Below the pieces are notes generated by a model. It was given only the letters and a program-made list of their open reading frames with translations, made no database searches and was not told the origin of the DNA. Positions 9,001 through 36,252 of a DNA stretch of 64,000 bases are shown here, piece after piece (the first letter of the stretch is position 1; each line of letters opens with the position of its first letter). The DNA lies in IMG/VR virus record IMGVR_UViG_3300023179_000082, positions 10,220 through 74,219 of that record. One strand, given 5' to 3'. The DNA comes from a virus. Both the position numbers and the translations under genes were made by a program.

Positions 9001-11295
9001 TGCTACTGAAGATAATTTAAACGTTGTTATACTTGGCGTAGATGTATCAATATCATAGATATAATATAGTTGATTATCTAAATCAAGCCATTCGCTAGGC
9101 CATGTATTAGGAATTTGTAAAACAACTGATTGACCCTCTACTAGCGTAACATTAAGAGCAGGATTTTCTATACCCACTAATTCTGAATTGTTAACTGTTA
9201 CAACTGCTGCACTTGCAGAAGAAAAGTTTGCAATAGTTGGTAAGGTAGGAATAATACCTTCTACGGTAGTAAACAAATCTACGGTAGCAGTATCAATATA
9301 GTCAACATCACCTAATGAGTTAATACCACTAGTAAATAATTTTAAATTAGGTACAAACTCAATAATTGGGCGTTTTGCTCTTGCTGAAGTTGATTCTAAA
9401 TCTTGTAAAGCACGTGCGCTTTTTGTATAATCATAGGTTGCTTGTAACACTTCATAATGAAACCAACGATTACTACGTGACCACGCATTGCGATCACGTG
9501 ATAAACGACTAATAGTGATATAATCTTGACTAATAGGTTGATTTAAAATTACATCATATCCTGTTGTATCATATGGTTCCATATCATATGGTACAAATAT
9601 TGGATCAGTATACAATTCAGGTGTACTTAAGTCTGTAGTAGGTATTAACTCAATTGCAGTGCCAACACCTTCAACATAATATTCACCTTCTTCATAAGCA
9701 ACAGGTATAACATTACCTTCAAACCTAACTTTTAAACCATTCGTGAAAACCACACCATTAGGACTAGTATAAGTTGATTTACCAACAATATCAGTGATAA
9801 AGATAGATGCATCTGCATTGCTATCAATAAGTTCTATAATACCTACACTATTCGGATCATTAGCATTTTGATAATATAATCGATTTAATTGTGCGCTAAG
9901 ATAAGGAATTAACTCAATTTGTCCTGCTAAATTTCTAAAGAATGAACGTGCTTGATATACTGTACCTAAGTTTACTGTAATTTTTTCCAATGTTGGAATA
10001 TTACTTTCTTCAACTAAGCGTATAATGATTGTTTGGTCAAAACCAATCTCTACAGGCGTAGTTACGCTTTGTGCAGGATCAGGATAACTTTCATCATAAC
10101 GTGGGTATGGTGCAGCATTATAACCTACTGTAACCGCAGGTGGAACAGGATAACGCTCATTTTCAAAGGTTAAAGTTGTAGATGTTGTTACGGTAACATT
10201 GTTACTTAAATATACGTTAGAATTAACTACATTTTCTACTACTGTGTTTGATGGTATACCGCTACCTGTCACAACCATACCTGGGTAGATATTTGCAATA
10301 TCATCCACGCCAATGATAGACACACTTGTATAAGTTCCATCAGGAGTGGTTGTTGCTGTTAGTACATTATTTGTATCATATACAATACGATAATATTTTA
10401 CTTGATTGGCAATGCTGTCAGGACCGTAAAACAGTATACTTTTACCATTTAAATCAGTAACTCCATCAATATTATAACCAATCTCAGCTAATGTTTTACC
10501 ATTTAAATCATCATAAGTGCCTGTATAGATGATGTCAACCGCATGGTTACCAGGCAAATCATACTGCGATTGTGCTATTTTAGATGGTACCGTAAATGTT
10601 ACAACACCTGTAGATGCGCCATTGTTCGTAACACCAAGTATATCTCTTGTACTGATATTAGGATAATTAGGCAGTGTTCCTGTTACGCCTGGCACGCCTT
10701 GTATCCAAAATGGATCACTACCACTTGTAACAAAACGATAAGTGCCACCACGTAGCAATGTAATAATTGGGTTTTTCTGTTCAAAACTTGAAATTCTATA
10801 ACCATCACTAGAATCAAGTACGTTATATGTTCTACGATTGTATACAGTATCAGTTGATACTAGCACAGAATCAGGACCAAGCGGTAACCAATAGTATTGC
10901 TGATAGTTCAACAACATGTCATAGTTAATGTATGATTCCCAACTATAACTATCTTGTGTGAATAAATCTTGTGGGTTTAGGGTTAAATTGTTTGGTTGCT
11001 TAAGGGCATCGACAATACCTGGGTAGGAGATAAAGTCCTGTGGCTTTTGTGTATCAGGCTTTAAAAAGATAACCGCAGGTTCAAGCTGATAGTCAGTCCT
11101 GATTTTGTCAGGTTCGACAACATATTTGTCATTGCGATTAATGCCATAGCCAAATTTTTCGCCAATATAGCCTTGAACAGCAGTTACATTCTTTTGCTGA
11201 GTCAATTGCTCTAGCGTAGCAGACAAAAATTGTCTGTTAGTTTCAGTCCTGAATATTTCAGGCAAAAAGTCGATTGTGCGTACCTTGGTTACCAT
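1..11295 (-). CDS. Giant virion structural protein (baseplate-associated), 3' end truncated by the window edge; >3,765 aa; contains FG-GAP-like beta-propeller repeats
   Basis: ATG at 11295 gives MVTKVRTIDFLPEIFRTETNRQFLSATLEQL. The same frame reads as protein at spot checks near 3050 (QFGYHVVMNESSSIAIGAP) and at position 1 (IRLDRTSYRSTITSWDGANT). It is absent from the ORF track, consistent with no stop inside the window. It follows the gp6-like gene and has CTAAATA upstream (11321-11327). Not every codon was checked. Confidence 0.85.
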   Translation of the reverse strand, partial: MVTKVRTIDFLPEIFRTETNRQFLSATLEQLTQQKNVTAVQGYIGEKFGYGINRNDKYVVEPDKIRTDYQLEPAVIFLKPDTQKPQDFISYPGIVDALKQPNNLTLNPQDLFTQDSYSWESYINYDMLLNYQQYYWLPLGPDSVLVSTDTVYNRRTYNVLDSSDGYRISSFEQKNPIITLLRGGTYRFVTSGSDPFWIQGVPGVTGTLPNYPNISTRDILGVTNNGASTGVVTFTVPSKIAQSQYDLPGNHAVDIIYTGTYDDLNGKTLAEIGYNIDGVTDLNGKSILFYGPDSIANQVKYYRIVYDTNNVLTATTTPDGTYTSVSIIGVDDIANIYPGMVVTGSGIPSNTVVENVVNSNVYLSNNVTVTTSTTLTFENERYPVPPAVTVGYNAAPYPRYDESYPDPAQSVTTPVEIGFDQTIIIRLVEESNIPTLEKITVNLGTVYQARSFFRNLAGQIELIPYLSAQLNRLYYQNANDPNSVGIIELIDSNADASIFITDIVGKSTYTSPNGVVFTNGLKVRFEGNVIPVAYEEGEYYVEGVGTAIELIPTTDLSTPELYTDPIFVPYDMEPYDTTGYDVILNQPISQDYITISRLSRDRNAWSRSNRWFHYEVLQATYDYTKSARALQDLESTSARAKRPIIEFVPNLKLFTSGINSLGDVDYIDTATVDLFTTVEGIIPTLPTIANFSSASAAVVTVNNSELVGIENPALNVTLVEGQSVVLQIPNTWPSEWLDLDNQLYYIYDIDTSTPSITTFKLSSVADISSPEPLDTQGYTPPSVGTAYASFGNYVIDGQTVFDGARIIVSNDTDSSVRNKIYYATFVQIDTSGTTVASFVQDTDVAVEDLSQAIITRGDDSYNHVGRTFYYDLELFSGTGGWQQSQLKTGTNQAPLFDVLNENGVSLSNTSSYPASTFAGSKLFSYTPNPDGPDDPVLGFPIQYTSIENTSDINFTVNFNTDTFSYTSGTTTVSELINTGYVNQYIIPTIPTKRIGWVNSVEQSVQYQVFSFTSSAFNTANNVTTVICEIPAQPDTGWNPVKVYLNNRYLKSNQFSYTVTSTETIITVPNVEYDLPIVVELLSPEISSNAYFTVPTNLENNPFNVNPTTLDLGGIRNHWISICENSGLVTGNFVGNNNSRDLPNLSEYGNKIVQNSAPLLLTGLFLRKPGYNVLDALTFNSNEYTNYKQLIVDTAYQLDFSPYDTPSYILDTIVQRLVQAKAETVPFFWSDMFYSGDAYITNNYSFRNSASTASYTLSQIYNFTSANYDGLGIYVTRQIDGYAREIQLLRNVNWVTSTTSPSVTITFDFLAGDVVTIKEYNQTWGTFCPNTPSKLGMYPAFVPQVLLDNSYTTPTYFIIGHDGSYTKLYGTYVNGRLTDPRDIALFEFENRVWNNIKVTQDIPIVTADIVPGQFRTTAYSDEEVLQVTTPSFLNWIGKNRLNYRTNFYRADNAFTYNYRGSTIEIDNSLVKQGYWRGLYKWLYDTDTPHITPWQMLGFAARPSWWISYYGDAPYTSDNTVLWTDLANGFVWNNGNSYTLTKYQRPQLLNIIPVDSSGNLVPPLSVVIGFYNSIDFRRDWLPGDDSPTEASYEKSSTYPFDLMRLFVLTKPAKFFGLMVDRDLYRFNTEIAQWLYNDRYHINPNDIVVYGDGTPKHSYINWVVDYLNQRGTSSTTDVQTAIQNLDVRLVYRVGGFTAKKFLSFLVEKASTNSTNTGLLIPAESYNILLYDNVPSDKITWSTVIVQKTANGYTVWGNSLTQSFFRCALPINNNYKEIISYDKYRVTVSAEFNKTETYLVPYGTEFYSLEGVAEFLVRYGAHLKNQGMQFINNYDGIEYNWSQMVAEFLYWQSQKWSVGSLINLNPNSQKLTVNRENFIVQPLTLQQSNFVLDQNMVPIKPTNMLVNRDGTLFELQVKNVGDTLAYSIFNMSNIEHAIVFDNVTLFNDVIYNVSIGLRQERILMKGYVTAEWDGYVDAQGFLLNQNNIVEWQSNIKYTKGQIVKYKDKYWVAATIIEPNANFNQEQWIASDYQDVQEGLLANPSTEAAEALNFYNTNVAALNPDTDLLSFSLIGFRPRNYMAAADLSTISQVNIYKNFIKEKGTNIIASAFKRAEFAQGQIDYDIYENWGIQSGEFGAVNSSNFVETLLIEADLNSNPTIIGFTDANITSVNGAQQTTNIDELINWDRKPYTADFLPPMVDNYTVQAGIPTAGYVNYDDVKTTSYNYFGLNDDSNTVQNMYYGDYIWLADYLSTWNVSTPISVGAVVVLMQNNLNGTCTLTYDRPHGLTKNQRFSVVGFDSNIDGYYTVNTKVSLNSVLINKLLPNNIRTIEGIGISFKFQNHRVTQPSNASNFPIPNNEFARKKLWADEDGPQPDAQWAVYESIPVYQLTTLTSTAGTGQTGAVAYNATIGTVIAYSGYVRVFPLSGSPYNLASSASVTDIAVAGNYIFTVSGTNLRIYTAPSTAVTQTIVLSNAGSSIATSATGTVVYVGSSSTNNVYQYINTGASWVAGSTVTTPSASGSVGAVLGFGYSVACSNQGNKLFVSAPTSTISGITEAGVVYCFDYTGSAINLQQTIVNPAPHQGALYGHSVSTFQYGSDFIVGAPFNLQTVSGVNNVEGAVYRYTSSAQRYGTISGVVSASYPFSGTLYIDSDIITITAAANLAGIVSQINAGLTGAGRTAAATASGSTLTIAVDPLLVDTPLNILDISSNSVATLTALGLTPYTLTQTLFEPYKTDTAQFGYHVVMNESSSIAIGAPTATKHDRTTFDFSDNYLNDDTIFDWGATTFIDQWPLFGEVLVYDYLPAANENITNPGKYVFAEYTNDPTYNIGNYGLQPMYGSGGIAFRDSVITVTSPMWGTPDVGRVTQFTSSNQQTWNVIRAPLAAVNINKLEYISIYDTIDNTDLEYLDYIDPIQGKLFGALESNIDYITMKDPAGYGVNSPAWTKDMVGRIWFDPSNIRMVDTHQSVYGETSTPYSVYNAKHWGQPFVGSLPLVYRWTESTVDPLNYAGPGTPRNFDNYVTVTVQDNNTNSLVSLYYFWVENNPIIDTKIGKTLNTSTIASYILNPIGSGIAYLAPIGTNAVALYNTNTYIRANSSALHIGYSNNVNFDNKHVEFNLIKQNDPFDFLNGIPNIRRVGQQDPQGLYLKYINSFAGRDILAQPVPDTNLPLLVRYGTSNVYRQSMFRDRTLALENYITYVNNVLINYPVTESRVMTFLNESGTGWDTTDFWSYENYWVSGYSNATKAQVQVQSVPELAAVTAREGLVARVSVTSTSGNAVFYAYLNNEWVLIGIENGTIQFSSTLYTNTDLNEVSLPIRYVIRAINEQIFIGDLQIERNRSLVLMFNYIMSEAQQRKNYLPWLNKTSLIDVSHTIRELIPYEKFQRDNQEFLSGYLNEVKPYHVVIKDFSFRYVGTEIFEGDITDFDVPSRYVQSLANYESPILVYELTQAQDNEYLPSNPIWTTSEYVNWYNNYGLSIDQSEAENVSIAVLRRFVSLDATSIFVSNAYGMPAIGYIQIDDEIIGYNFVDYYRGRLAGLSRARFGTTIATHNPNTEVLLSFDPVTIIETGRAYANPPTIDAVIDLAQFPEPRTEAQLTPIMANDRVIGIQVDDSGSGYAQQPEILIQPAFEETFNANAFGVGTNRINLTAATNFISGDCVRYRVEEGSTPPLGLTDGAYYYVRVNIASNSLFLFNNKAAALARQGDVNYNDDPVMIYGNAVGNGHVFGETARAVAFTTSRPTRELRTTIRLDRTSYRSTITSWDGANT

Positions 11296-25829: not shown

Positions 25830-26846
25830 ATGAGTAATTTATTTAAAAAAGCAGCAGTTTTTACAGACATACACTACGGTTTAAAGAACAATAGTATACA
25901 ACATAATGAAGACTGCCTAAAATTTACGGATTGGTTTATCTCCAATGCTAAAAAACATGGGTGTGAAACATGTTTTTTTCTAGGAGACTACCATCACAAT
26001 CGTGCTACTATCAATGTACTTACCCTTAACTATAGCTTAAAAGGGTTAGAAAAACTTAACGAAAGCTTTGAACGGGTGTATTTTATACCTGGAAATCATG
26101 ATTTGTATTACAGAGATAAACGTGATATACAAAGTGTAGAATGGGCACGTTACTTACCTAACGTAGAAATTTGCAATGATTGGGTGGTTCGTGATGATGT
26201 AGTTATTGCACCATGGTTATGCGGTGATGACTACAAACATATACCAAAATTACAAGGCAAATATTTGTTTGGTCATTTTGAACTACCAACTTTTTATATG
26301 AATGCTATGGTAGAAATGCCCGATCATGGCGAAATCAATCGCAATGACTTGCATCATTTTGACCATGTTTTTACAGGACATTTCCATAAACGCCAAACTA
26401 AAGGAAACGTAACATATATTGGAAACGCATTTCCGCATAATTATAGTGATGTAAATGATGATGAGCGTGGTATGATGATTTTAGAATGGGGAGCAAAACC
26501 AATTTTTGAAAGTTGGCCTAATCAACCTAAATTTCGTTCATATACTTTATCGGAAATTTTAGATAAGCCTGATGATTTACTCATACCTAATTCTAATGTA
26601 CGTATTACTATAGACAAAGAAATAAGCTATGAAGAATCAAGTACCATTAAGGAAACAATCATGAATGAATATAAATTACGTGAAATGACTATGATTCCAC
26701 AACGTGTTGATATTGAAACTGACACTACAGAACATGTAAACTTGCAATTTCAATCAGTTGATGCCATTGTATTATCTCAAATAGAACAACTAGATGCAGG
26801 TGCTTATGATAAGCAACTGTTACTTAATATCTACAAAAACTTATGA
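25830..26846 (+). CDS. gp47: Recombination/repair nuclease subunit (gp47 / Mre11-SbcD family metallophosphoesterase)
   Basis: Phosphoesterase motifs FTDIHYG, FLGDYHH, PGNHD, FGHFE and GHFH. Confidence 0.92.
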   Translation: MSNLFKKAAVFTDIHYGLKNNSIQHNEDCLKFTDWFISNAKKHGCETCFFLGDYHHNRATINVLTLNYSLKGLEKLNESFERVYFIPGNHDLYYRDKRDIQSVEWARYLPNVEICNDWVVRDDVVIAPWLCGDDYKHIPKLQGKYLFGHFELPTFYMNAMVEMPDHGEINRNDLHHFDHVFTGHFHKRQTKGNVTYIGNAFPHNYSDVNDDERGMMILEWGAKPIFESWPNQPKFRSYTLSEILDKPDDLLIPNSNVRITIDKEISYEESSTIKETIMNEYKLREMTMIPQRVDIETDTTEHVNLQFQSVDAIVLSQIEQLDAGAYDKQLLLNIYKNL

Positions 26847-29008
26847 TTATTATTAAAGAACTAACAATTAAGAACTTCTTATCTGTTGGCAATGTAACAC
26901 AAAAAATACACTTCAATCGCAGTGACCTTACTCTTATACTAGGCGAAAACCGTGATTTAGGCGGGGATGGTGCACGTAATGGCACAGGAAAATCAACGAT
27001 AGTACAAGCTTTATGCTATGCATTATATGGTACTGTGCTGAATAATATCAAAAAAGATAACCTAATTAACCTAACTAATGGTAAAGGTATGCTTGTTACC
27101 GTTGATTTTGAGGTGAATGGTAGTGAATATCGTATTGAACGTGGTCGTAAACCAAATACACTTAAGTTTTTTGTTGATAATACTGAACAAGAATTTAGTG
27201 AAGATGAAAATGAAAGTCAAGGTGATAGTCGTGAAACACAGCTTACTATTGAGTCTGTTATTGGTATTTCTGCTGAGATGTTTAAGCATATTGTTGCCTT
27301 AAACACTTATAATGAACCATTTCTTGCACTTAAAGCAGCAGACCAACGTGAAATTATTGAACAATTACTTGGTATTACATTGCTTTCTGAAAAAGCAGAA
27401 GGTATCAAAGAACTTAATCGTAACGTAAAAGAACAAATTCAAGCAGAAGAATTTAAAATACGTGGCTTGCAAGATGCTAATACTAAAATTCAAGAACAAA
27501 TTGATAGCCTAAAACGTAGACAAACACTATGGTTGGCTAAGAAAGATGAAGATATTACCACATATACTAATCAATTAATAGAATTGTATAAGATTGATAT
27601 CGATCAAGAAATAGCATCACATCGTTCTTTGGTTACTTATAATGATAACCAAACCAAATTAACCACTGCCAAAACGCACTTAGATAGTGAAATGGCTAAA
27701 CTTAGTAAACGTTATAACGATGCAGTCATTGCCTACAAACGTGAAAAAGACACAATAGTCACACAAATGAACAGTTTGAAAAATATTGATATACATATCG
27801 AAATTTCAAACTTGAAAATTATTTCTGAAATTAGAGAAAAAACAATTACACGTGACAATACTAAGAAATTATTTGATGCTAGTAACGCTACTTGCACACG
27901 CTTAAGCAAAGATATTGCTATTATTAACGCAGAATTAGTTAAATTATACGATCACAAATGCTATGCATGTGGACAAGATTATCATGATGAAACACATAAA
28001 TTTACGCTAAAGAGCAAAGAAAATCAATTAGCTGAACTACAAGCTGATTTAGCTACAGCAGAAAATCAATCGCAAGAATATAATACAATATTAAATGGTA
28101 TTGGTACGATTCCATCCATTCCTGCTGTTCATTATAAAACGTTAGAAGATGCCATCAATCATAAGTCAACAATTGATTCATTAGCTGATAAAACCATAAA
28201 ATTACAGGAAAACTTTAACAAAACCCAAAGTTTGTATGAAAATGATGTGGATGCTTTGAACAAGCAATATGATGATACTGTGCGTGAAATCGGTGAACTT
28301 GGTACAAAACCTGTTACAGTGTATAAAACATTGGAACAAGCATTAAAACATCAAAGTACGGTAGAAAAGTTAGAGCAATCGTTAGAAAGACGTGTAGAAG
28401 AAGTTGACCCATACAGTGATCAAATCAATGATATGGAGAGTAATAGTATTACTGAAATATCTTATACTATGTTAAATCAGTTAACTACTACGTTAAAGCA
28501 TCAAGAATACTTGCTTGATTTGCTCACTAATAAGAAATCCTTTGTTCGTAAGAAAATTATTGAACAAAATCTAAATTATTTGAATAGTCGTTTGACATTA
28601 TATTTGGATAAGATGGGTTTACCGCATCGTGTTAAGTTTCAAAATGATTTATCGGTTGAAATTACTGAACTTGGGCGTGAGTTAAGTTATGGTAATTTTA
28701 GTCGTGGTGAAAGCACAAGGTTAATATTATCCCTATCATTTGCTTTTAGGGATGTATGGGAAAATCTATATCAAGGTATTAATTTATTGTTTGTTGATGA
28801 AATGATAGACAATGGATTAGATAGTGTTGGTGTAGAAAATGCGATTGGATTGTTTAAAGAGCTAGGCAGACGCAGAGATAAGTCAGTGTGGTTAATTTCA
28901 CATCGTGACGATTTAATGAGTCGTGTTGGTAACGTGTTACATGTCATCAAAGAGGGTGGATTTACACGGTATAGTCATATGAATGAAAAAATTGCAGTAG
29001 CAGTATAG
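26843..29008 (+). CDS. gp46: Recombination/repair ATPase subunit (gp46 / Rad50-SbcC family)
   Basis: Walker A NGTGKS, coiled coil with CYAC zinc hook, signature FSRGE, Walker B LLFVDE and ISH motif. ATGA overlap with gp47. Confidence 0.92.
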   Translation: MIIIKELTIKNFLSVGNVTQKIHFNRSDLTLILGENRDLGGDGARNGTGKSTIVQALCYALYGTVLNNIKKDNLINLTNGKGMLVTVDFEVNGSEYRIERGRKPNTLKFFVDNTEQEFSEDENESQGDSRETQLTIESVIGISAEMFKHIVALNTYNEPFLALKAADQREIIEQLLGITLLSEKAEGIKELNRNVKEQIQAEEFKIRGLQDANTKIQEQIDSLKRRQTLWLAKKDEDITTYTNQLIELYKIDIDQEIASHRSLVTYNDNQTKLTTAKTHLDSEMAKLSKRYNDAVIAYKREKDTIVTQMNSLKNIDIHIEISNLKIISEIREKTITRDNTKKLFDASNATCTRLSKDIAIINAELVKLYDHKCYACGQDYHDETHKFTLKSKENQLAELQADLATAENQSQEYNTILNGIGTIPSIPAVHYKTLEDAINHKSTIDSLADKTIKLQENFNKTQSLYENDVDALNKQYDDTVREIGELGTKPVTVYKTLEQALKHQSTVEKLEQSLERRVEEVDPYSDQINDMESNSITEISYTMLNQLTTTLKHQEYLLDLLTNKKSFVRKKIIEQNLNYLNSRLTLYLDKMGLPHRVKFQNDLSVEITELGRELSYGNFSRGESTRLILSLSFAFRDVWENLYQGINLLFVDEMIDNGLDSVGVENAIGLFKELGRRRDKSVWLISHRDDLMSRVGNVLHVIKEGGFTRYSHMNEKIAVAV

Positions 29009-29024
29009 TGTAATAAGTATCGAT

Positions 29025-29534
29025 ATGCCATCAGCAAGTAAAATTAAGGGTAGTACATTTGAGCGAGAAATAGCCAAATATCTATCAGATTTGTATAAAG
29101 AATCCTTTATACGTGTCCCCAATAGTGGCGCATTTATTGGTGGTATAAACACAAGTCGCAAAGAATTTTTGCATGAAGGTCAGGTAAGAAGCTTCAAAGG
29201 TGATATCATCCCAGGCGAATCTTTCAAACTCCTCAACATTGAATGTAAAAACTATGGTGATTTTTCCTTTCATCAATTACTAACTAGTTGCAAAGTATTA
29301 GATAATTGGTTAGACCAATTGATGGAAGTAAGTGATGAGCATGATTTAAATGTACTTTTTATGAAATTCAATCGTAAAGGTCGTTATATTGCTGTACAAT
29401 GGCATCATCAGTGGGAATTAATCAATTACAGTGTTTACAAAAACAATACCCATGGTATATGGGTTATATCAGAATTAGAACATTTTTTTAAATTAAACTC
29501 AGGTCGTTTTAAACTTTTATCTCAACATACTTAG
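29025..29534 (+). CDS. Holliday-junction resolvase-like PD-(D/E)xK nuclease
   Basis: SKIKGSTFEREIAKYL...RVPNSGA...GDII...IECKNY follows the Hjc-type pattern. Confidence 0.75.
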   Translation: MPSASKIKGSTFEREIAKYLSDLYKESFIRVPNSGAFIGGINTSRKEFLHEGQVRSFKGDIIPGESFKLLNIECKNYGDFSFHQLLTSCKVLDNWLDQLMEVSDEHDLNVLFMKFNRKGRYIAVQWHHQWELINYSVYKNNTHGIWVISELEHFFKLNSGRFKLLSQHT

Positions 29535-29578
29535 GTCTCCTTAGGTCTAACATCTTACTTTTACTCCAATTTAGGTCT
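29531..29578 (+). repeat. Three direct repeats of TTAGGTCT at 29531, 29541 and 29571
   Basis: Exact 8-mers spaced 10 and 30 bp apart. Confidence 0.8.
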
Positions 29579-29592
29579 TTATTATAGAACAA

Positions 29593-30043
29593 TAGGTTTG
29601 GTTGCATGACCTGTAACGCAACGTAGGTACACTAATTAAAGTTGGTTAATGCCTTGGCTGAGTTCTACAGCAGCTTCAATAGACTATCCCCAAGACCCAT
29701 GTGGTTGTAAGGACGCTATAAACGGATGCCCATTGGTAGTCACGTTTCTATTGTCGTAATAGTTGAATCTACTGTAAAGTAGGTTAGGGTAAAAAGTATT
29801 TTTTATCAAGTGCTCGATCATAATAATAGTGGAAAAGGGTCGAGACTGTGTTAATAGCTAACTCACTGAGGTTATTAACGTTACAGTGTATGCGGTGTGT
29901 TTCTTGTACAAACAAGTTTTGGGGTGATATAGTCAAACCTACCTGAATAAAATGCACGAAGTGAGCACCTTCTACGAGAGTGGGCGGGGAAGAAGAACCA
30001 AATGTGTGGATTATTGCAACTGTAAAAAGTTACATTTATCCAC
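29593..30043 (+). ncRNA. Candidate large structured non-coding RNA (family unknown)
   Basis: No ORF of 60 aa or more in the track. It contains many helices whose non-Watson-Crick pairs are mostly G-U on the + strand, GNRA tetraloops (GUAA 29774-29777, GAGA 29976-29979) and long-range pairings (29682-29696 with 29916-29934, or 29593-29604 with 29930-29941). Boundaries are approximate. Confidence 0.55.
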
Positions 30044-30134
30044 CTTTTTGCAAAAAAGATAAACGGAAAAATAATAATAAAAAAAAATATGAGTGTACGT
30101 GGCTGAAGCGATAGCGTAAGCTTAGTACACGAAT

Positions 30135-30153
30135 AGATGACCTTTGGTCATCT
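30135..30153. terminator. Perfect hairpin AGATGACC-TTT-GGTCATCT at the point of convergent transcription
   Basis: 8-bp inverted repeat abutting the stop codon of the minus-strand gene 30153..30380. No long U-tract is adjacent, so a terminator role is tentative. Confidence 0.45.
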
Positions 30154-30380
30154 TAAAAGAATGGTAATCCACTTTTCTTAGTAACTTCTAGATTTTCATC
30201 AATTAACTTGTTAATAATATTAGTTTCAGTTGGTGAAAGATTCATAGCATCAACATATGATAATGAACCACGCATATACCATGCTGCTTTTAAAGCATTG
30301 CGTTTAATAATAGTAACTTCTTCTTCGTATCCTTTTACTAGCTTCTCTATATCATCTTGTGATAGATAGAGAAGCCTCAT
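30153..30380 (-). CDS. Small tail/hub assembly chaperone segment (gp51-like or lambda 'T'-like); probably also translated as a -1 frameshift extension of the upstream gene
   Basis: WYMRGSLSYVDAMNLSPTE motif, ATGA overlap with the upstream gene, no obvious SD, and position in the -1 frame right after a slippery heptamer. Confidence 0.7.
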   Translation of the reverse strand: MRLLYLSQDDIEKLVKGYEEEVTIIKRNALKAAWYMRGSLSYVDAMNLSPTETNIINKLIDENLEVTKKSGLPFF

Positions 30381-30389
30381 TCGAAAAAA
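30340..30389 (-). other. Putative programmed -1 ribosomal frameshift signal (U UUU UUC + 6-nt spacer + 10-11 bp hairpin)
   Basis: The minus strand reads GAT TTT TTC GAA TGA. The heptamer is 30389-30383 and the stem GCTTCTCTAT/ATAGAGAAGC spans 30375-30341. Confidence 0.7.
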
Positions 30390-31198
30390 TCGGTAACACT
30401 AAATGTTATAGTTTGATTATATTCGTGTTGGCAACTTACGCATTTAAATCGTAATGGTTTAGATTGACTACTTTCACGCAATTCTATATTGTGATCACGT
30501 ATTGTGTCATACATTTTCTTATCACAGTTTTGTAAAAAATCCAAGATAAAAGGTTGATTTGATACACTAGTTTCAGGTGTTCTAATATATTCTATATTTT
30601 TAGATAGAATTTTTTGTGTTAAGTTGTTCATACGTACTAGCAATTCACTAGCTGCTTTATTCTTAACCTCACCATCCTCATAATTTTCTAATTGTGCTAA
30701 ACCACGTTGTATTTCAAATTGTTCAGCACTAGCATTATTATTATCTTGGTAGGTAGTTGACCTAAACTTGATTGCTAAATCACCTACAACTAATTCAGTA
30801 TTATAGTCACCAACTTGAATAGTGCTTATTAATTTTGAAAGGTTAATACCATAACGATTACTATTTTTACATGCAGGACAATTTGTGTCTACGTCCATTT
30901 CATCACCGTTAGTGGCTATACGAATTGATATTAATACAGTTTCTAAGTCAGCATTAAGTAATAACCATGGATTTTTAATGGTTGGTACACAACTTTGAAT
31001 GATGGAGACTACTGCTGAACCATTATACAAAGCATCAGGTGTACGTGCAGTAATTTCATCATTTGCAGTCATTGGGTATACAGGAAGTTCACCTGTTGGT
31101 GGTAAATCTACGATTTCTGATGAATATTTGTAGTTGCTAGGTAAACGTATATGTATAGCAGGTCTGCGAAAATACTGCTTAAGTGGGTTGTTTTCCAT
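30377..31198 (-). CDS. Baseplate hub / tail assembly chaperone (T4 gp26-like) with two CxxC motifs
   Basis: MENNPLKQYFRRP...LPS...YPMTANDEI...ISIRIATNG...CPAC...CVSC...TDFF resembles gp26-family proteins. Start is ATG 31198 with SD GGAGA. It sits divergent from the tape measure gene. Confidence 0.7.
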   Translation of the reverse strand: MENNPLKQYFRRPAIHIRLPSNYKYSSEIVDLPPTGELPVYPMTANDEITARTPDALYNGSAVVSIIQSCVPTIKNPWLLLNADLETVLISIRIATNGDEMDVDTNCPACKNSNRYGINLSKLISTIQVGDYNTELVVGDLAIKFRSTTYQDNNNASAEQFEIQRGLAQLENYEDGEVKNKAASELLVRMNNLTQKILSKNIEYIRTPETSVSNQPFILDFLQNCDKKMYDTIRDHNIELRESSQSKPLRFKCVSCQHEYNQTITFSVTDFFE

Positions 31199-31267
31199 GG
31201 TGAAGTTAAATCTCCGTATATATAATTTGATAAATATATTTAATCCTAAAAAATTGACATATAAAAA

Positions 31268-34200
31268 ATGGCAGACCAACTTGATCCTGAATTAATGCGT
31301 CAGCTCAATGATAAATTCACTGAGTTATCAAATTCTATTACTACGATTGGCACTATTTCAGCCAAATCAATGAAATCAGTGGAGGACAATACTCAAAAAG
31401 TTGACAAAAATACATCATCTACTGAAGATAATACTAAAGCAACGGATGAAAATACTAGTTCAATCAAGCGTAATACTACTGCAGTAAACAGTCAGTTAAA
31501 GACTACGGAAAAAAATACTCAAGCATCTTCTGATCAAACTGATGTTATTAAAGAAGCTAATAATGCTATAAAAAATCAAGCACAAGCGGTTGGTGCTAGT
31601 AAAAAAACATTTGATGATTTAACAAAAGCCACTAATCAGCAATTTAAATCATATATGGCAACTGAGGTTGCAAAAGAGCAAATAAGTGGTGCATCAGCAA
31701 AAGCTCAGCAAGAATTAAATTCTAGACTAAAACTATCAAGCATTGGAATGGAAGTATTCCAAACAGGCGTAGAGGGTGTTAAGAAAGTTTTTGATGCTGC
31801 GATTGATGCGCAAATGAACTATACTAAAGCTTTGTTGCAGGGTACACGTGGTTTAGGTTTGGAAGCGCAGCGTAGAGAAACTGAAGGCAAAGCTGTAAAC
31901 CAAGTTATACGTGATTTTGGCAACTTAAGTATGTCGATTGGTGGATTGATGGTGGCGTTAGGACCGTTTGGTATAATTGGTCGTATTGTAGGTTTGGTTG
32001 GAGTAGGTGTTGGTATTTTGGCACAGTATGAAGCAAAAGCACGAGATTTTGCTTTGGAAGTGGCTACTATTACTGAACAGTTAAAAGATAAACTGTTTGA
32101 TACTTTCAAAGATTTAAGTAATTCTGCTTTAACTACTGCAGGAGGTATGACCACATTACGTGCTCAAATGAAGAAGTTTGATTTTGCTATGGCTGAAGTT
32201 GGTCAATTTGCAGCCGTAATAAAAGGTGCGGGTAAAGAGTTATCACAAATTGGTGGTTCTACAGTTAAAGGTTTAGAAAACTTTGTTGAAACTGCTGCAG
32301 ATTTGTTTGAAAGTCAACTTGGTAAAGAGTTGCAATACATGGGCTTGGATCGTGAAGAACAAATGAAAGGAACATTAAAGTTCTTAAGTTTACAAGCTAG
32401 ATTAGGTGTTCAACAAGAAAAAGACATTAAAAAGTTATCACAATCAGCAGGAAAATACATATCAGAATTAGACCAATTAGCTACGCTAACAGGTATAACA
32501 CGTCAAGAACAAGAACAAGCACGTGAACAAGTTATGGCAATTGAGGAATTACGTGCTGCTTTAGTGGAAGAAACTGCAAAAGGTGCTGCTGCAGATAAAG
32601 GTCGCTTAAAAGTATTAGAAGATGCCATACAAGTATCTACTGTATTAACTGCAGAAGGCATGAAAGAAGCAGGTGCTTCATTAGCTAGAACAGTTGCTGC
32701 AGGTGGTGTAACAAGGGCTGAAGATGCTAAATTATTACAAACTGCACCACAATTTTTACAGAATATGATGCAAGGTGTGGGTAGTGTAACCGACAATTTA
32801 CAATTATTTGGTAAAGAATCTAAACAAACATTGACACAATTGTCAAGCGCAGTAAAAGTATCAGGTGATATTGGTAAGGAAATAGCAGCAGTTGACTACG
32901 CAAAATTATTTGATTTCATACCAAAAATAGATAAGATTGCAGAATTACAAAAACAATTCCCTGAGAAAACATTACCACAAATCGTAGATGAAATGCGTAA
33001 GGTAACCGATCCCGCTACTAAAGCAGTACAAGATTTAATAAATGCTCAAAGAAAAGACGCAATTGCAAAAGAAGAATCAGGTGGAGGAATAAAAGGGGCA
33101 GCGGATTTACTAAAGTCAGGTGCACAAATATTTGGTATAAATGTTGAAAATTTTGGAAAATATGTACGTCAATTATTAGGAATAAAAGACACTGCTAAGG
33201 TAGAAAAAACTGAAGCAACTAAAAAAGCAGAAGCTAAAGTAGAAGAAAAGAAAAAAATTACTGATATAGCCACTGAAAAAGCAACTGCTGCATCCATGGC
33301 TGAGGATCAAGCTAAGAAAGAATTAGCCGAACTATATAAAAAGGGTGACGTTGCAGGTGTCGAAGCTAAAAAAGTTGAAATACAAAAATTAACTGACGAG
33401 CGTATGAAAGCTGAACAAGAAATGATGGTTGCTTCACGTGATCAATCACAAGCTGCTTTAGAAGCTTCAAACCAACGTAAAAAAGATATACGAGAAGTAA
33501 ACCAACTTGATGATAAAATAAGATTTTATAAAGATTCAATTAATCTTAACAATATGAAAATTGATTCATTATCAAAAGACCAAGTTGAATTAAATATAGA
33601 ACTTAAAAAATCAACGGGATTTGCTAAATTAGAAAATGAAAATCGATTAAAACATCTTACTCGATTAAGAGAATTAGCAGAAAAAGAAGTAAAAGAAGCA
33701 GAAGAAAATATCAAAAAAAGTGAAGAACGTAAAAAAGAACTAGAAAAGAAAACGTCTACCGCTACCCCAACCCCTGCAGCATCTTCACAAGAACGTAAAG
33801 AATTTGTGGACAAAATGTATGCAACATTACTTGAGCAAGCTAAAAAACAAGGTGTTGCAAATCCTGAAGTTGTTGCTAGATTAGGTGTTGCTCAATCTGC
33901 TTTAGAAACAGGGTATGGTAAATCCACTGCAGGTGGTCAAAATTATTTTGGTATTAAAGCAGGTAAAGGTCAGCCTAGTGTCACTGCGGAAACTGAAGAA
34001 TTTGATGCAGCCAAAGGTGTAATGGTCAAACAACAAGCTGCGTTTAAAAAATATAGTAGCATGGAAGAATCTGCTGCTGATTATATTAAATTCTTAAAAG
34101 AAAATCAGCGATATAAGGAAGTATTAGCAGCAAAAACACTTGACGAGGCTATTCTAGCACAAAGTATGTCAGGTTATGCTACTGATCCACGTTATGGACA

Positions 34201-34482: not shown

Positions 34483-34490
34483 TATAAATA
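34483..34490 (+). promoter_or_regulatory. T4-type late promoter TATAAATA (portal gene)
   Basis: Exact T4 late consensus 4 nt before the portal ATG. A gp55-like sigma is encoded in the window. Confidence 0.7.
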
Positions 34491-34494
34491 CAAG

Positions 34495-36252
34495 ATGCCA
34501 TTAAAAAAGAAATTTTCTAATTTTCACGGTTCACTATCTCCTATAAGTGGTGGTAATAGCAATACAGGAGCATGGAATGCAGGTGCGGGACAAGAACCAA
34601 CAGGTGCTTGGAACAATGATTTTGCTTTTCGTAATTACCAAAGTCGCTTACCTGAAGTATATACAGGTCATCCAAATCGTATAGAACGTTATAATCAATA
34701 TGAAATGATGGACGTTGATCCTGAAATTAATGCATGTTTGGACATTCTTAGTGAGTTTAGTACACAGATTAATCAACAAAATAATACACCATTTGAGTTA
34801 ATCTTCAATGATGAGCCTACTGATGTAGAAGTAGATTTGTTAAAAAAACAATTACAGCAATGGTGTAAACTAAACGAATTTGATACTAGAACATTTAAAA
34901 TATTTCGCAATACAGTAAAGTATGGTGATCAAGTTTTTGTGCGTGATCCTGAAAACTTTAAACTGTATTGGATGGACATGACTAAAGTTGTTAAAGTCAT
35001 TGTTAACGAAACTGAGGGTAAAAAACCTGAGCAGTATGTAATAAAAGATATCAACCCAAACTTACAAAATTTAACTATTGCTGAAAAAACAACAACTGAT
35101 TTTCAGGCACAACCACCTACAGCAGGTTATAGTGCGCCATACTCTTATACTGTACCCAATGAACCATATGGTACTACAGGTACACGTTTTAGTTTAGGTA
35201 TTAATGAATTTGCTGTTGATGCTAAGCACATTGTACACCTATCCTTAACTGAAGGATTAGACCGTTATTGGCCTTTTGGACAAAGTATATTAGAAAATAT
35301 CTTTAAAGTATACAAACAGAAAGAATTATTAGAGGATGCGATATTAATTTATCGTGTTCAACGTGCGCCTGAGCGTAGGGTGTTTAAGATTGATGTAGGT
35401 AATATGCCATCACATTTAGCAATGCAGTTTGTTAATCGTATTAAAGATGAGATACATCAACGCAGAATACCTAGTGTGCATGGTGGTAGCAATGTGTTAG
35501 ATGCAACCTATAACCCATTATCAATTAATGAAGATTACTTCTTTCCAACAACTGCTGAGGGACGTGGTAGTAGTGTCGAAGTACTGCCTGGCGGTCAAAA
35601 CCTTGGTGAAATTGATGATTTAAAGTATTTTAACAATCGTTTAGCACGTGGTTTGCGAATACCAAGTTCATACTTACCGACAGGTCCTGATGATCAAACC
35701 ACACCATTGAATGATGGTCGTGTTGGTACAGCAATGATTCAAGAGTTTCGTTTTAACAAATACTGTGAACGTTTACAAGGTTATATTGCAAGAAAGCTAA
35801 ATGAAGAATTTAAGTTATTCTTGCGTTGGCGTGGTTTTAATATTGATAGTGGTTTATTTGATATTAAGTTAAATGAACCACAAAATTTTGCTAGTTATCG
35901 ACAAGCTGAATTAGATACTGCACGTGTTAACACTTTTAATACTATGGCAGCATTGCCATACATGAGTACACGTTTTTGTTTAGAACGTTTCTTAGGATTA
36001 ACACAAGAAGAAATCAAGAAAAATCAAGAATTGTGGCATGAAGAACGTAATAAACCTGATGACATGGAAGCTAAAGGTTCTGACTTACGTAGTGTTGGTA
36101 TATCTACAAGTGATATAGAACAAGATTTAGAATCAGCAGAAACCTTAGATGCTGAAGAAAATATGCCACCTGAAGGAGGTGAAGCTGCTGAAGTTACCGC
36201 ACCTGTGGGTGGACCTGAAACAGCACCTCAACCCCCACCTGCAGGTACTTAG
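34495..36252 (+). CDS. gp20: Portal vertex protein (T4 gp20-like)
   Basis: LLEDAILIYRVQRAPERRVFKIDVGNMP, EDYFFP..EGRGSSVEVLPGGQNLGEIDDLKYF and LRIPSS are gp20 motifs. Confidence 0.95.
   Translation: MPLKKKFSNFHGSLSPISGGNSNTGAWNAGAGQEPTGAWNNDFAFRNYQSRLPEVYTGHPNRIERYNQYEMMDVDPEINACLDILSEFSTQINQQNNTPFELIFNDEPTDVEVDLLKKQLQQWCKLNEFDTRTFKIFRNTVKYGDQVFVRDPENFKLYWMDMTKVVKVIVNETEGKKPEQYVIKDINPNLQNLTIAEKTTTDFQAQPPTAGYSAPYSYTVPNEPYGTTGTRFSLGINEFAVDAKHIVHLSLTEGLDRYWPFGQSILENIFKVYKQKELLEDAILIYRVQRAPERRVFKIDVGNMPSHLAMQFVNRIKDEIHQRRIPSVHGGSNVLDATYNPLSINEDYFFPTTAEGRGSSVEVLPGGQNLGEIDDLKYFNNRLARGLRIPSSYLPTGPDDQTTPLNDGRVGTAMIQEFRFNKYCERLQGYIARKLNEEFKLFLRWRGFNIDSGLFDIKLNEPQNFASYRQAELDTARVNTFNTMAALPYMSTRFCLERFLGLTQEEIKKNQELWHEERNKPDDMEAKGSDLRSVGISTSDIEQDLESAETLDAEENMPPEGGEAAEVTAPVGGPETAPQPPPAGT

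Follow-up and report, generated by a model that had tools for sequence, protein, structure and literature searches.

What does a giant T4-like phage encode in the one large gap between its genes? The stretch analysed here (the window) comprises 64,000 nt of the IMG/VR virus record IMGVR_UViG_3300023179_000082 (positions 10,220 to 74,219). The source record, ~74 kb long, is judged ~21% complete, and therefore originates from a giant phage; the genes near the gap are T4-like in character. The initial annotation had singled out this gap as the only large one free of ORFs, and had proposed that it encodes an undescribed structured RNA. The gap is indeed unique: 29535-30152 (618 nt) is the sole stretch of at least 300 nt in the window without an ORF of at least 60 aa, and its GC content is ~0.40, against ~0.30 in its surroundings. 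The following features delimit this slot:

26843-29008: SbcC/gp46-like gene
29025-29534, + strand: PDDEXK_15/RusA-like resolvase gene (from the ORF list; Pfam PF24608, 7.4e-25; PHROG 244)
30090-30152, - strand: hairpin pair that follows the stop codon of the 75-aa ORF (-22.1 kcal/mol, z = -5.8)
30153-30380, - strand: 75-aa ORF, convergent on the resolvase gene; downstream neighbour
30377-31279, - strand: T4_baseplate-family hub gene, behind the 75-aa ORF; convergent neighbour

The resolvase gene closes a gp47-gp46-like nuclease operon and directly precedes the RNA described below. The hairpins at 30090-30152 are probably the terminators of the - strand baseplate-hub operon and lie outside the RNA. 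Comparison of 28000-31279 with two relatives, L003 and L004, reveals a mosaic ancestry. The left flank (the gp46 end and the resolvase) is nearest to L003, with 88-90% DNA identity, and the right flank is nearest to L004 (92% for the 75-aa ORF, 83% for the hub gene). As the flanks have different nearest relatives and the RNA lies in between, a recombination break is placed in or near the RNA. A T4 late-promoter word, TATAAATA, is found at 34483-34490, 5 nt upstream of an ORF starting at 34495; with 5 copies against 13 expected, this word is rarer in the window than by chance.

Very probably the gap contains a genuine structured RNA whose family is uncatalogued; we call it type A. Its relatives were reached via the resolvase and hub proteins, in five viral contigs and one metagenome contig (L004/L005, L003, L097, L002 and L085), making six type A sequences with the window. 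A metagenome scan with the resolvase protein returned one further type A sequence only, L097. The gaps of the relatives exhibit 72-86% identity to the window, and their alignments (A1, A3) show invariant blocks alternating with variable hairpins and insertions. No conserved ORF was found within the gap, either in the ORF list or in the type A alignments; a small-protein reading was rejected, the 36-aa ORF at 29952-30062 not being conserved among the relatives. The RNA core is preserved as well as the flanking genes or better, with identities between relatives of 82-90% and 76-92%, respectively. DNA sequencing runs of nine studies contain the type A RNA. No RNA run is listed as containing it; two runs labelled RNA-Seq are probably DNA and leave the RNA uncovered.

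We built by hand a structure model of 124 pairs in 21 helices on the six sequences, in which 94.6% of cells are paired. Covariation among the syntenic homologues, which had been named at the outset as a test of the RNA, is pronounced: 27 pairs have changed on both sides, against 13.1 +/- 2.3 in partner shuffles, with none of 500 shuffles as high, although the six sequences form about two clades, so that many of these events are shared, and the letters behind several long-range helices do not vary. Sliding the partners by 1-3 columns leaves 2-5 doubly changed pairs, against the 27 of the model. The folding energy gives a different picture. The initial annotation had stated that an energy no better than that of shuffles would speak against the RNA, and this is what we obtained. 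Across 29571-30051 the + strand has z = -0.33, 35 of 100 shuffles folding equally well, whereas the - strand has z = -1.25. An earlier z of about -2 was traced to the flanking terminators and to the use of only 20 shuffles. We accept the RNA despite this chance-level energy because the covariation overrides it.

The assignment to the + strand stands as first proposed. The model pairs include 81 G-U cells against 11 A-C cells, and this excess identifies the + strand as the RNA strand. Consensus folding by RNAalifold is more favourable for the + strand (-156 kcal/mol) than for the - strand (-129 kcal/mol), and the loops described as GNRA on the + strand only are just that. Thus the gap encodes a ~480-nt + strand RNA (29571-30051) that is selected for its structure. 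The earlier picture of a multi-domain structured RNA on the + strand, downstream of the recombination cassette, is backed by covariation, strand bias and the RNA's own terminator. Its size was corrected: the structured RNA itself is borne out, and the extent of ~450 nt from 29593 gives way to 29571-30051. The parts of the RNA, all on the + strand, are as follows:

29531-29578: three copies of TTAGGTCT (the relatives carry two YWAGGTC copies; alignments A1, A3)
29571-30051: whole type A RNA, ~480 nt, from the first conserved block to the U-tract of the terminator; conserved blocks in six sequences
29585-29667: 5' domain, helices 100% paired and mostly invariant
29601-05/29618-22: hairpin d, in the 5' domain
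29625-29/29650-54 plus 29631-36/29641-46: two-part hairpin, in the 5' domain
29657-60/29668-71: small hairpin, one doubly changed pair
29677-29753: three-way-junction core, 77 nt, with covariation; common to the F1-F3 RNAs (see below)
29677-81(83)/29747(49)-53: helix e, covarying, stacks on hairpin H
29689-90/29711-12: small CC...GG hairpin of the core, its third arm, covarying
29721-27/29739-46: hairpin H, covarying
29766-85: hairpin f with a GNRA loop (GUAA), 3 doubly changed pairs
29788-807: hairpin g, 3 doubly changed pairs
29813-44: hairpin h, 3 doubly changed pairs
29845-87: hairpin i, 4+2 doubly changed pairs
29862-67/29960-65: loop-tail pseudoknot, CUCACU in the loop of hairpin i with AGUGAG in the 3' tail
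29895-902/29950-57: long-range helix H3, 3 doubly changed pairs
29903-07/29912-16: hairpin enclosed by H3, part of 29895-29957
29971-84: hairpin k with a GNRA-type loop, GAGA (GCAA in L004)
30006-30051: intrinsic terminator, stem 30006-11/30038-43 followed by CUUUUUGC (z = -2.8; -4.9 in L085)

The type A RNA begins 36 nt behind the stop codon of the resolvase gene, on the same strand. A 29-nt insertion (29535-29563) that is absent from all relatives supplies the third TTAGGTCT copy behind this stop. The last copy of the AGGUC repeat (29572-77) is complementary to the loop GACCUG (29608-13) of hairpin d; this pairing is nearly invariant, with 91.7% of cells paired and no change on both sides. 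Within the 5' domain UAGAAC (29585-90) is able to pair with the loop GUUCUA (29662-67). The junction letters of the core, GACUAY and GGAYGCYWUAAA, are invariant. For hairpins f-i (29766-29887), 12 doubly changed pairs are given as the total. The loop-tail pseudoknot has 6 bp in six of six sequences, with C-G replaced by U-A in four. Besides its hairpin, H3 encloses ~33 nearly invariant nucleotides (29917-49), formally left unpaired by the nested hairpins and H3; UAGUC and ACCUA, both inside this stretch, are candidates for the 3' sides of two long-range pairings that are invariant. These candidates, AGGU (29594-97) with ACCU (29937-40) and GACUA with UAGUC (29682-86/29930-34), never vary and could close the molecule. 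The terminator is present in all type A relatives, with changed stems; its loop is longer than 8 nt and hence escapes a simple terminator scan.

Many of the helices listed by the initial annotation reappear in this model. Six hairpins (29766-85, 29788-807, 29813-44, 29845-87, 29971-84 and 30006-43) exhibit compensatory changes in the relatives. A further helix, ATGTGGTTG/TAGTCACGT (29699-29745), had to be abandoned: its 5' arm falls inside a 14-nt insertion confined to the window and L004, which at least three relatives lack, and its 3' arm belongs to a different covarying hairpin. The proposed long-range helix survives in one half, GACUA/UAGUC (5 bp, invariant); the other half, CCCCAAGAC/GTTTTGGGG or CCCCAAGAC/GUUUUGGGG, is lost in three of five relatives and was dropped. 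Similarly, from the competing fold TAGGTTTGGTTG/...CAAACCTA only AGGU/ACCU (4 bp) is conserved, and the supposed alternative fold is more simply accounted for as a closing helix. H3, helix e and the pseudoknot 29862-67/29960-65 were missing from that list.

We compared the RNA with known families. Searches with Rfam 15 at the gathering score gave no match in the window and 17 related loci, and at E <= 10 only noise (window, types D and E, F1-F3, and the PA5oct, Phosso and SCTP-2 loci); the covariance models of GOLLD, ROOL, OLE, raiA, HEARO and all other Rfam 15 families were without a match. The novelty claimed at the outset is thus intact with respect to Rfam 15. ARAGORN identified no tRNA or tmRNA gene in the window; an interrupted-tRNA reading was discarded, the flanks not being tRNA-like. 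Neither the gap nor type E (below) has a blastn match in 50,697 phage records, and we found no description of the type A RNA in the literature consulted.

Part of the type A RNA recurs elsewhere. Exact-pattern scans with blocks of the core identified three further groups of phage contigs, F1 (L201/L194/L189), F2 (L191/L213) and F3 (L200/L214), which have in common with type A the 77-nt three-way-junction core within ~130 alignable nucleotides (29655-29785). The order of elements is the same: CUUCAAUAGACUAYCC, a hairpin, GGAUGCYWUAAA, a hairpin, UUUCYAUUGUCGYAAYRGU and a GNRA hairpin. Alignment A4 of nine sequences exhibits all the traits by which we define this core family, namely the three-way junction, the invariant letters and the GNRA hairpin that follows. 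It also reveals new compensatory changes in helix e, hairpin H and the small hairpin (pair types CG:4, AU:4, UA:1 in hairpin H; AU:6, GC:3 in helix e). The 5' and 3' domains of F1-F3 are unalignable with those of type A, and GAUAUAGUC is absent from them; F1 and F2 retain AGGUU...AACCU. F3 occupies the same slot as type A (PDDEXK gene, RNA, T4_baseplate gene). F1 and F2 have no adjoining resolvase gene. F1 is flanked by an upstream terminator and a sigma70-like promoter (10/12, TG), and by a downstream terminator; having its own promoter and terminator, this RNA is a gene in its own right. The F1 unit, L201:1729-2444 (~690 nt), has a TTGACT-17-TATAGT promoter with TG and a terminator GGGTCTTGTAAAAGACCC plus T-run, and is followed downstream by an N6/N4 DNA methylase gene. 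A scan of 185,579 prokaryote genomes for the core pattern gave no match. A scan with the 18-mer ATAGTCAAACCTACCTGA returned known contigs, the rest being chance coding matches, and four loci from a 19-mer scan (L219-L222) were rejected as family members for the same kind of match.

The slot behind the resolvase is also occupied by other RNAs. Nearly all other relatives of the resolvase (~60% protein identity) keep a gap of ~500 nt there. In this gap more than 80 distinct lake-phage sequences carry an RNA, type D, with very strong covariation. Like type A, it lies behind a PDDEXK gene, convergent with hub genes, on the same strand and with a similar size. However, nhmmer profiles detect no sequence similarity between types A and D in either direction, and the helix layouts differ; the one shared motif, ACGAAGUGA, is found ~390-420 nt behind the stop, near the 3' end. 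No word of 6-8 letters occurs twice within the RNA in the six type A sequences. Type D (L012:4556-5060 and ~80 other loci) exhibits an invariant CCUCCUU, similar to the 3' end of 16S rRNA and paired with GGAG; its two pseudoknots, UUAUCU/AGAUAA and UCCC/GGGA, covary. Seven further contigs have a third RNA, type E, in the slot (L086:5044-5587 and L087:5763-6449, both on the - strand; L178; L180-L183). Type E keeps GUGGCAAGCCGACACUGCCCGUGGAG...CAACAAGUCUCUAAACGC invariant, several of its hairpins show compensatory changes, and it has no Rfam match. At L087:5097-5762 the hub-gene operon and the type E gap are separated by an inserted 221-aa ORF. In PA5oct (75,667-77,855; L186) and Phosso (229,759-230,772; L187), 1-1.5 kb of low-coding DNA lie between the hub and resolvase genes, where all annotated ORFs are tiny and there is neither an Rfam match nor a published ncRNA; the published PA5oct ncRNAs map elsewhere in that genome, outside the slot (PMC7318152).

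What might such an RNA do? We propose that the locus is a gene for a stably folded trans-acting ncRNA of an uncatalogued family, acting in the mode outlined here; taken as a whole, the proposal has about an even chance of being right. No conserved promoter precedes type A in the alignment of the relatives, and the RNA is therefore probably produced by read-through from the gp47-gp46-resolvase operon. The type A transcript would be released near the AGGUC repeats. Its 5' AGGU motifs would then join the 3' ACCU motifs, closing the molecule via the candidate invariant pairings, and the invariant junction letters with the ~33-nt nearly invariant stretch may constitute a partner-binding surface. 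Tentatively, and at less than even chances, our best guess is that it serves a phage protein complex as an RNA scaffold or cofactor. We favour this trans-acting role because of the compact tertiary fold: the invariant junction and stretch, the GNRA loops and the pseudoknots. To our knowledge, large RNAs with many pseudoknots are rare, and nearly all of those that are understood are ribozymes or the cores of RNA-protein machines. A role in starting DNA replication or recombination comes next, and is one that we consider unlikely. Any tie of the RNA to the nuclease operon is weakened because F1 and F2 do not adjoin a resolvase gene.

ColE1 RNA II and the T4 oriF transcript are the models for primer RNAs, and by positional analogy type A might be a replication-origin or primer RNA that controls a persistent RNA-DNA hybrid near the slot. 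T4 oriF lies within uvsY, directly adjoining the baseplate genes 25-26-51, and its transcript is the primer; the type A RNA stands between a recombination nuclease operon and gp26/51-like hub genes, and in the distant cultured relatives PA5oct and Phosso the slot consists of the low-coding DNA mentioned above, bordered in Phosso by an RNase HI gene. This reading is nevertheless doubtful: nothing in the sequence marks an origin, no conserved G-rich/C-rich hybrid tract or unwinding element is seen in the type A alignments, the RNA faces the hub genes while the T4 primer is read in their direction, and F1 and F2 lie in other genomic contexts. The start of the RNA 36 nt past a stop codon, on the same strand and with no conserved promoter, at a site of convergent transcription with terminators on both strands, would also suit a long structured 3' UTR or insulator of the nuclease operon, working only in cis by protecting against exonucleases and separating the convergent transcription. 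However, stabilisation calls for far less than an RNA of ~480 nt that contains pseudoknots, GNRA loops and invariant junctions, and the F1 relative, a stand-alone transcription unit, follows no gene; we find a purely cis-acting element improbable. Likewise we give little credence to the idea that the RNA serves as a decoy or in counter-defence, binding or misleading some host factor. Different, unrelated RNAs fill the same slot in related phages and a mosaic recombination break lies around the RNA, and such slot turnover with a break fits fast-turnover accessory functions, but type A is more conserved than would be expected of an arms-race gene.

Another reading is a group I intron of the T4 td type (IA2), or a free-standing ribozyme descended from such an intron. 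Here an R-like block, CUUCAAUAGACUAUCC, and an S-like block, GUGAUAUAGUC, would build P7 and J8/7. Collinear short matches to the 3' half of T4 td are present (GUUCUACA, GACUAUCCC, UCAAGUG-CUCGA, AACAAGUU..GAUAUAGUC and CUGAAxAxAAUG), the chain alignment to td reaches z = 3.7 (4/400 shuffles) with types D and E and coding controls at chance, and GACUA/UAGUC (29682-86/29930-34) is able to pair in all six sequences without any variation. The score of 3.7 is attained in the chained alignment only; pairwise local alignments to td and nrdB are weak (13/500 and 27/500). Against the intron, the group I model RF00028 has no match at E <= 10 on 29400-30300 or in the whole record, while it recovers T4 td at 40.3 bits and nrdB at 35.7 bits as positive controls, and a covariance model of the 3' module (R1) finds nothing in T4 introns, types D and E or the cultured relatives. 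The R-like block is part of the three-way junction with covarying helix e, and F1-F3 have this block (GACUA) without the S-like block (GAUAUAGUC). In place of the td-like terminal G (29954), L004, L003, L097 and L085 have A and L002 has U, and on inspection the sequence and alignment offer neither a P1 nor an internal guide pairing that includes a U-G pair. Nor are there exons: the resolvase gene is intact, the F3 homologue covers positions 1-159 of the 164 in the profile, and Salicola phage SCTP-2 has no gap behind its resolvase homologue. The promoter and terminator of F1 add to these objections, and we regard a group I origin in this sense as very unlikely. An intron of the resolvase gene in particular was rejected, the ORF ending ahead of the RNA and the 36-aa ORF behind the RNA not being conserved. 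A bolder alternative, distinctly unlikely in our estimation, is that type A and F1-F3 represent a new class of free-standing ribozyme with an active site or ligand pocket, or a structured primer RNA that sets a replication origin in giant T4-like phages; in the ribozyme version the invariant junction and the ~33-nt stretch would form the pocket, possibly with descent from T4-type group I introns.

Selection on its structure maintains type A in giant T4-like phages that live in lakes, rivers and aquaculture water. The recurring core and the unrelated large RNAs in the slot of hundreds of relatives point to an unrecognised RNA function in jumbo phages. For this family there are now predicted ends, a secondary structure that can be put to the test and, in F1, a stand-alone member with a normal bacterial-type promoter.

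Among known systems, the T4 td/nrdB group I (IA2) introns are resembled by type A in motifs similar to the R and S elements, P8 and the td 3' end, but type A exhibits no family-model match, exons, conserved terminal G or P1. A survey of structured RNAs in IMG/VR reported candidates of 29-151 nt, some of them near resolvase and RusA genes (PMC10690425); they come from the same data source and, besides their length, differ from type A in being described as upstream of genes. GOLLD (RF01998) and ROOL (RF03087), large "ornate" RNAs for which cryo-EM has been reported (bioRxiv 10.1101/2024.12.08.627333), differ from type A in architecture, with no match in sequence or structure. Nevertheless, they are likewise multi-domain RNAs of several hundred nucleotides with pseudoknots and GNRA loops and of unknown function, and, often phage-borne, they were likewise discovered by comparative genomics in lake and phage DNA.
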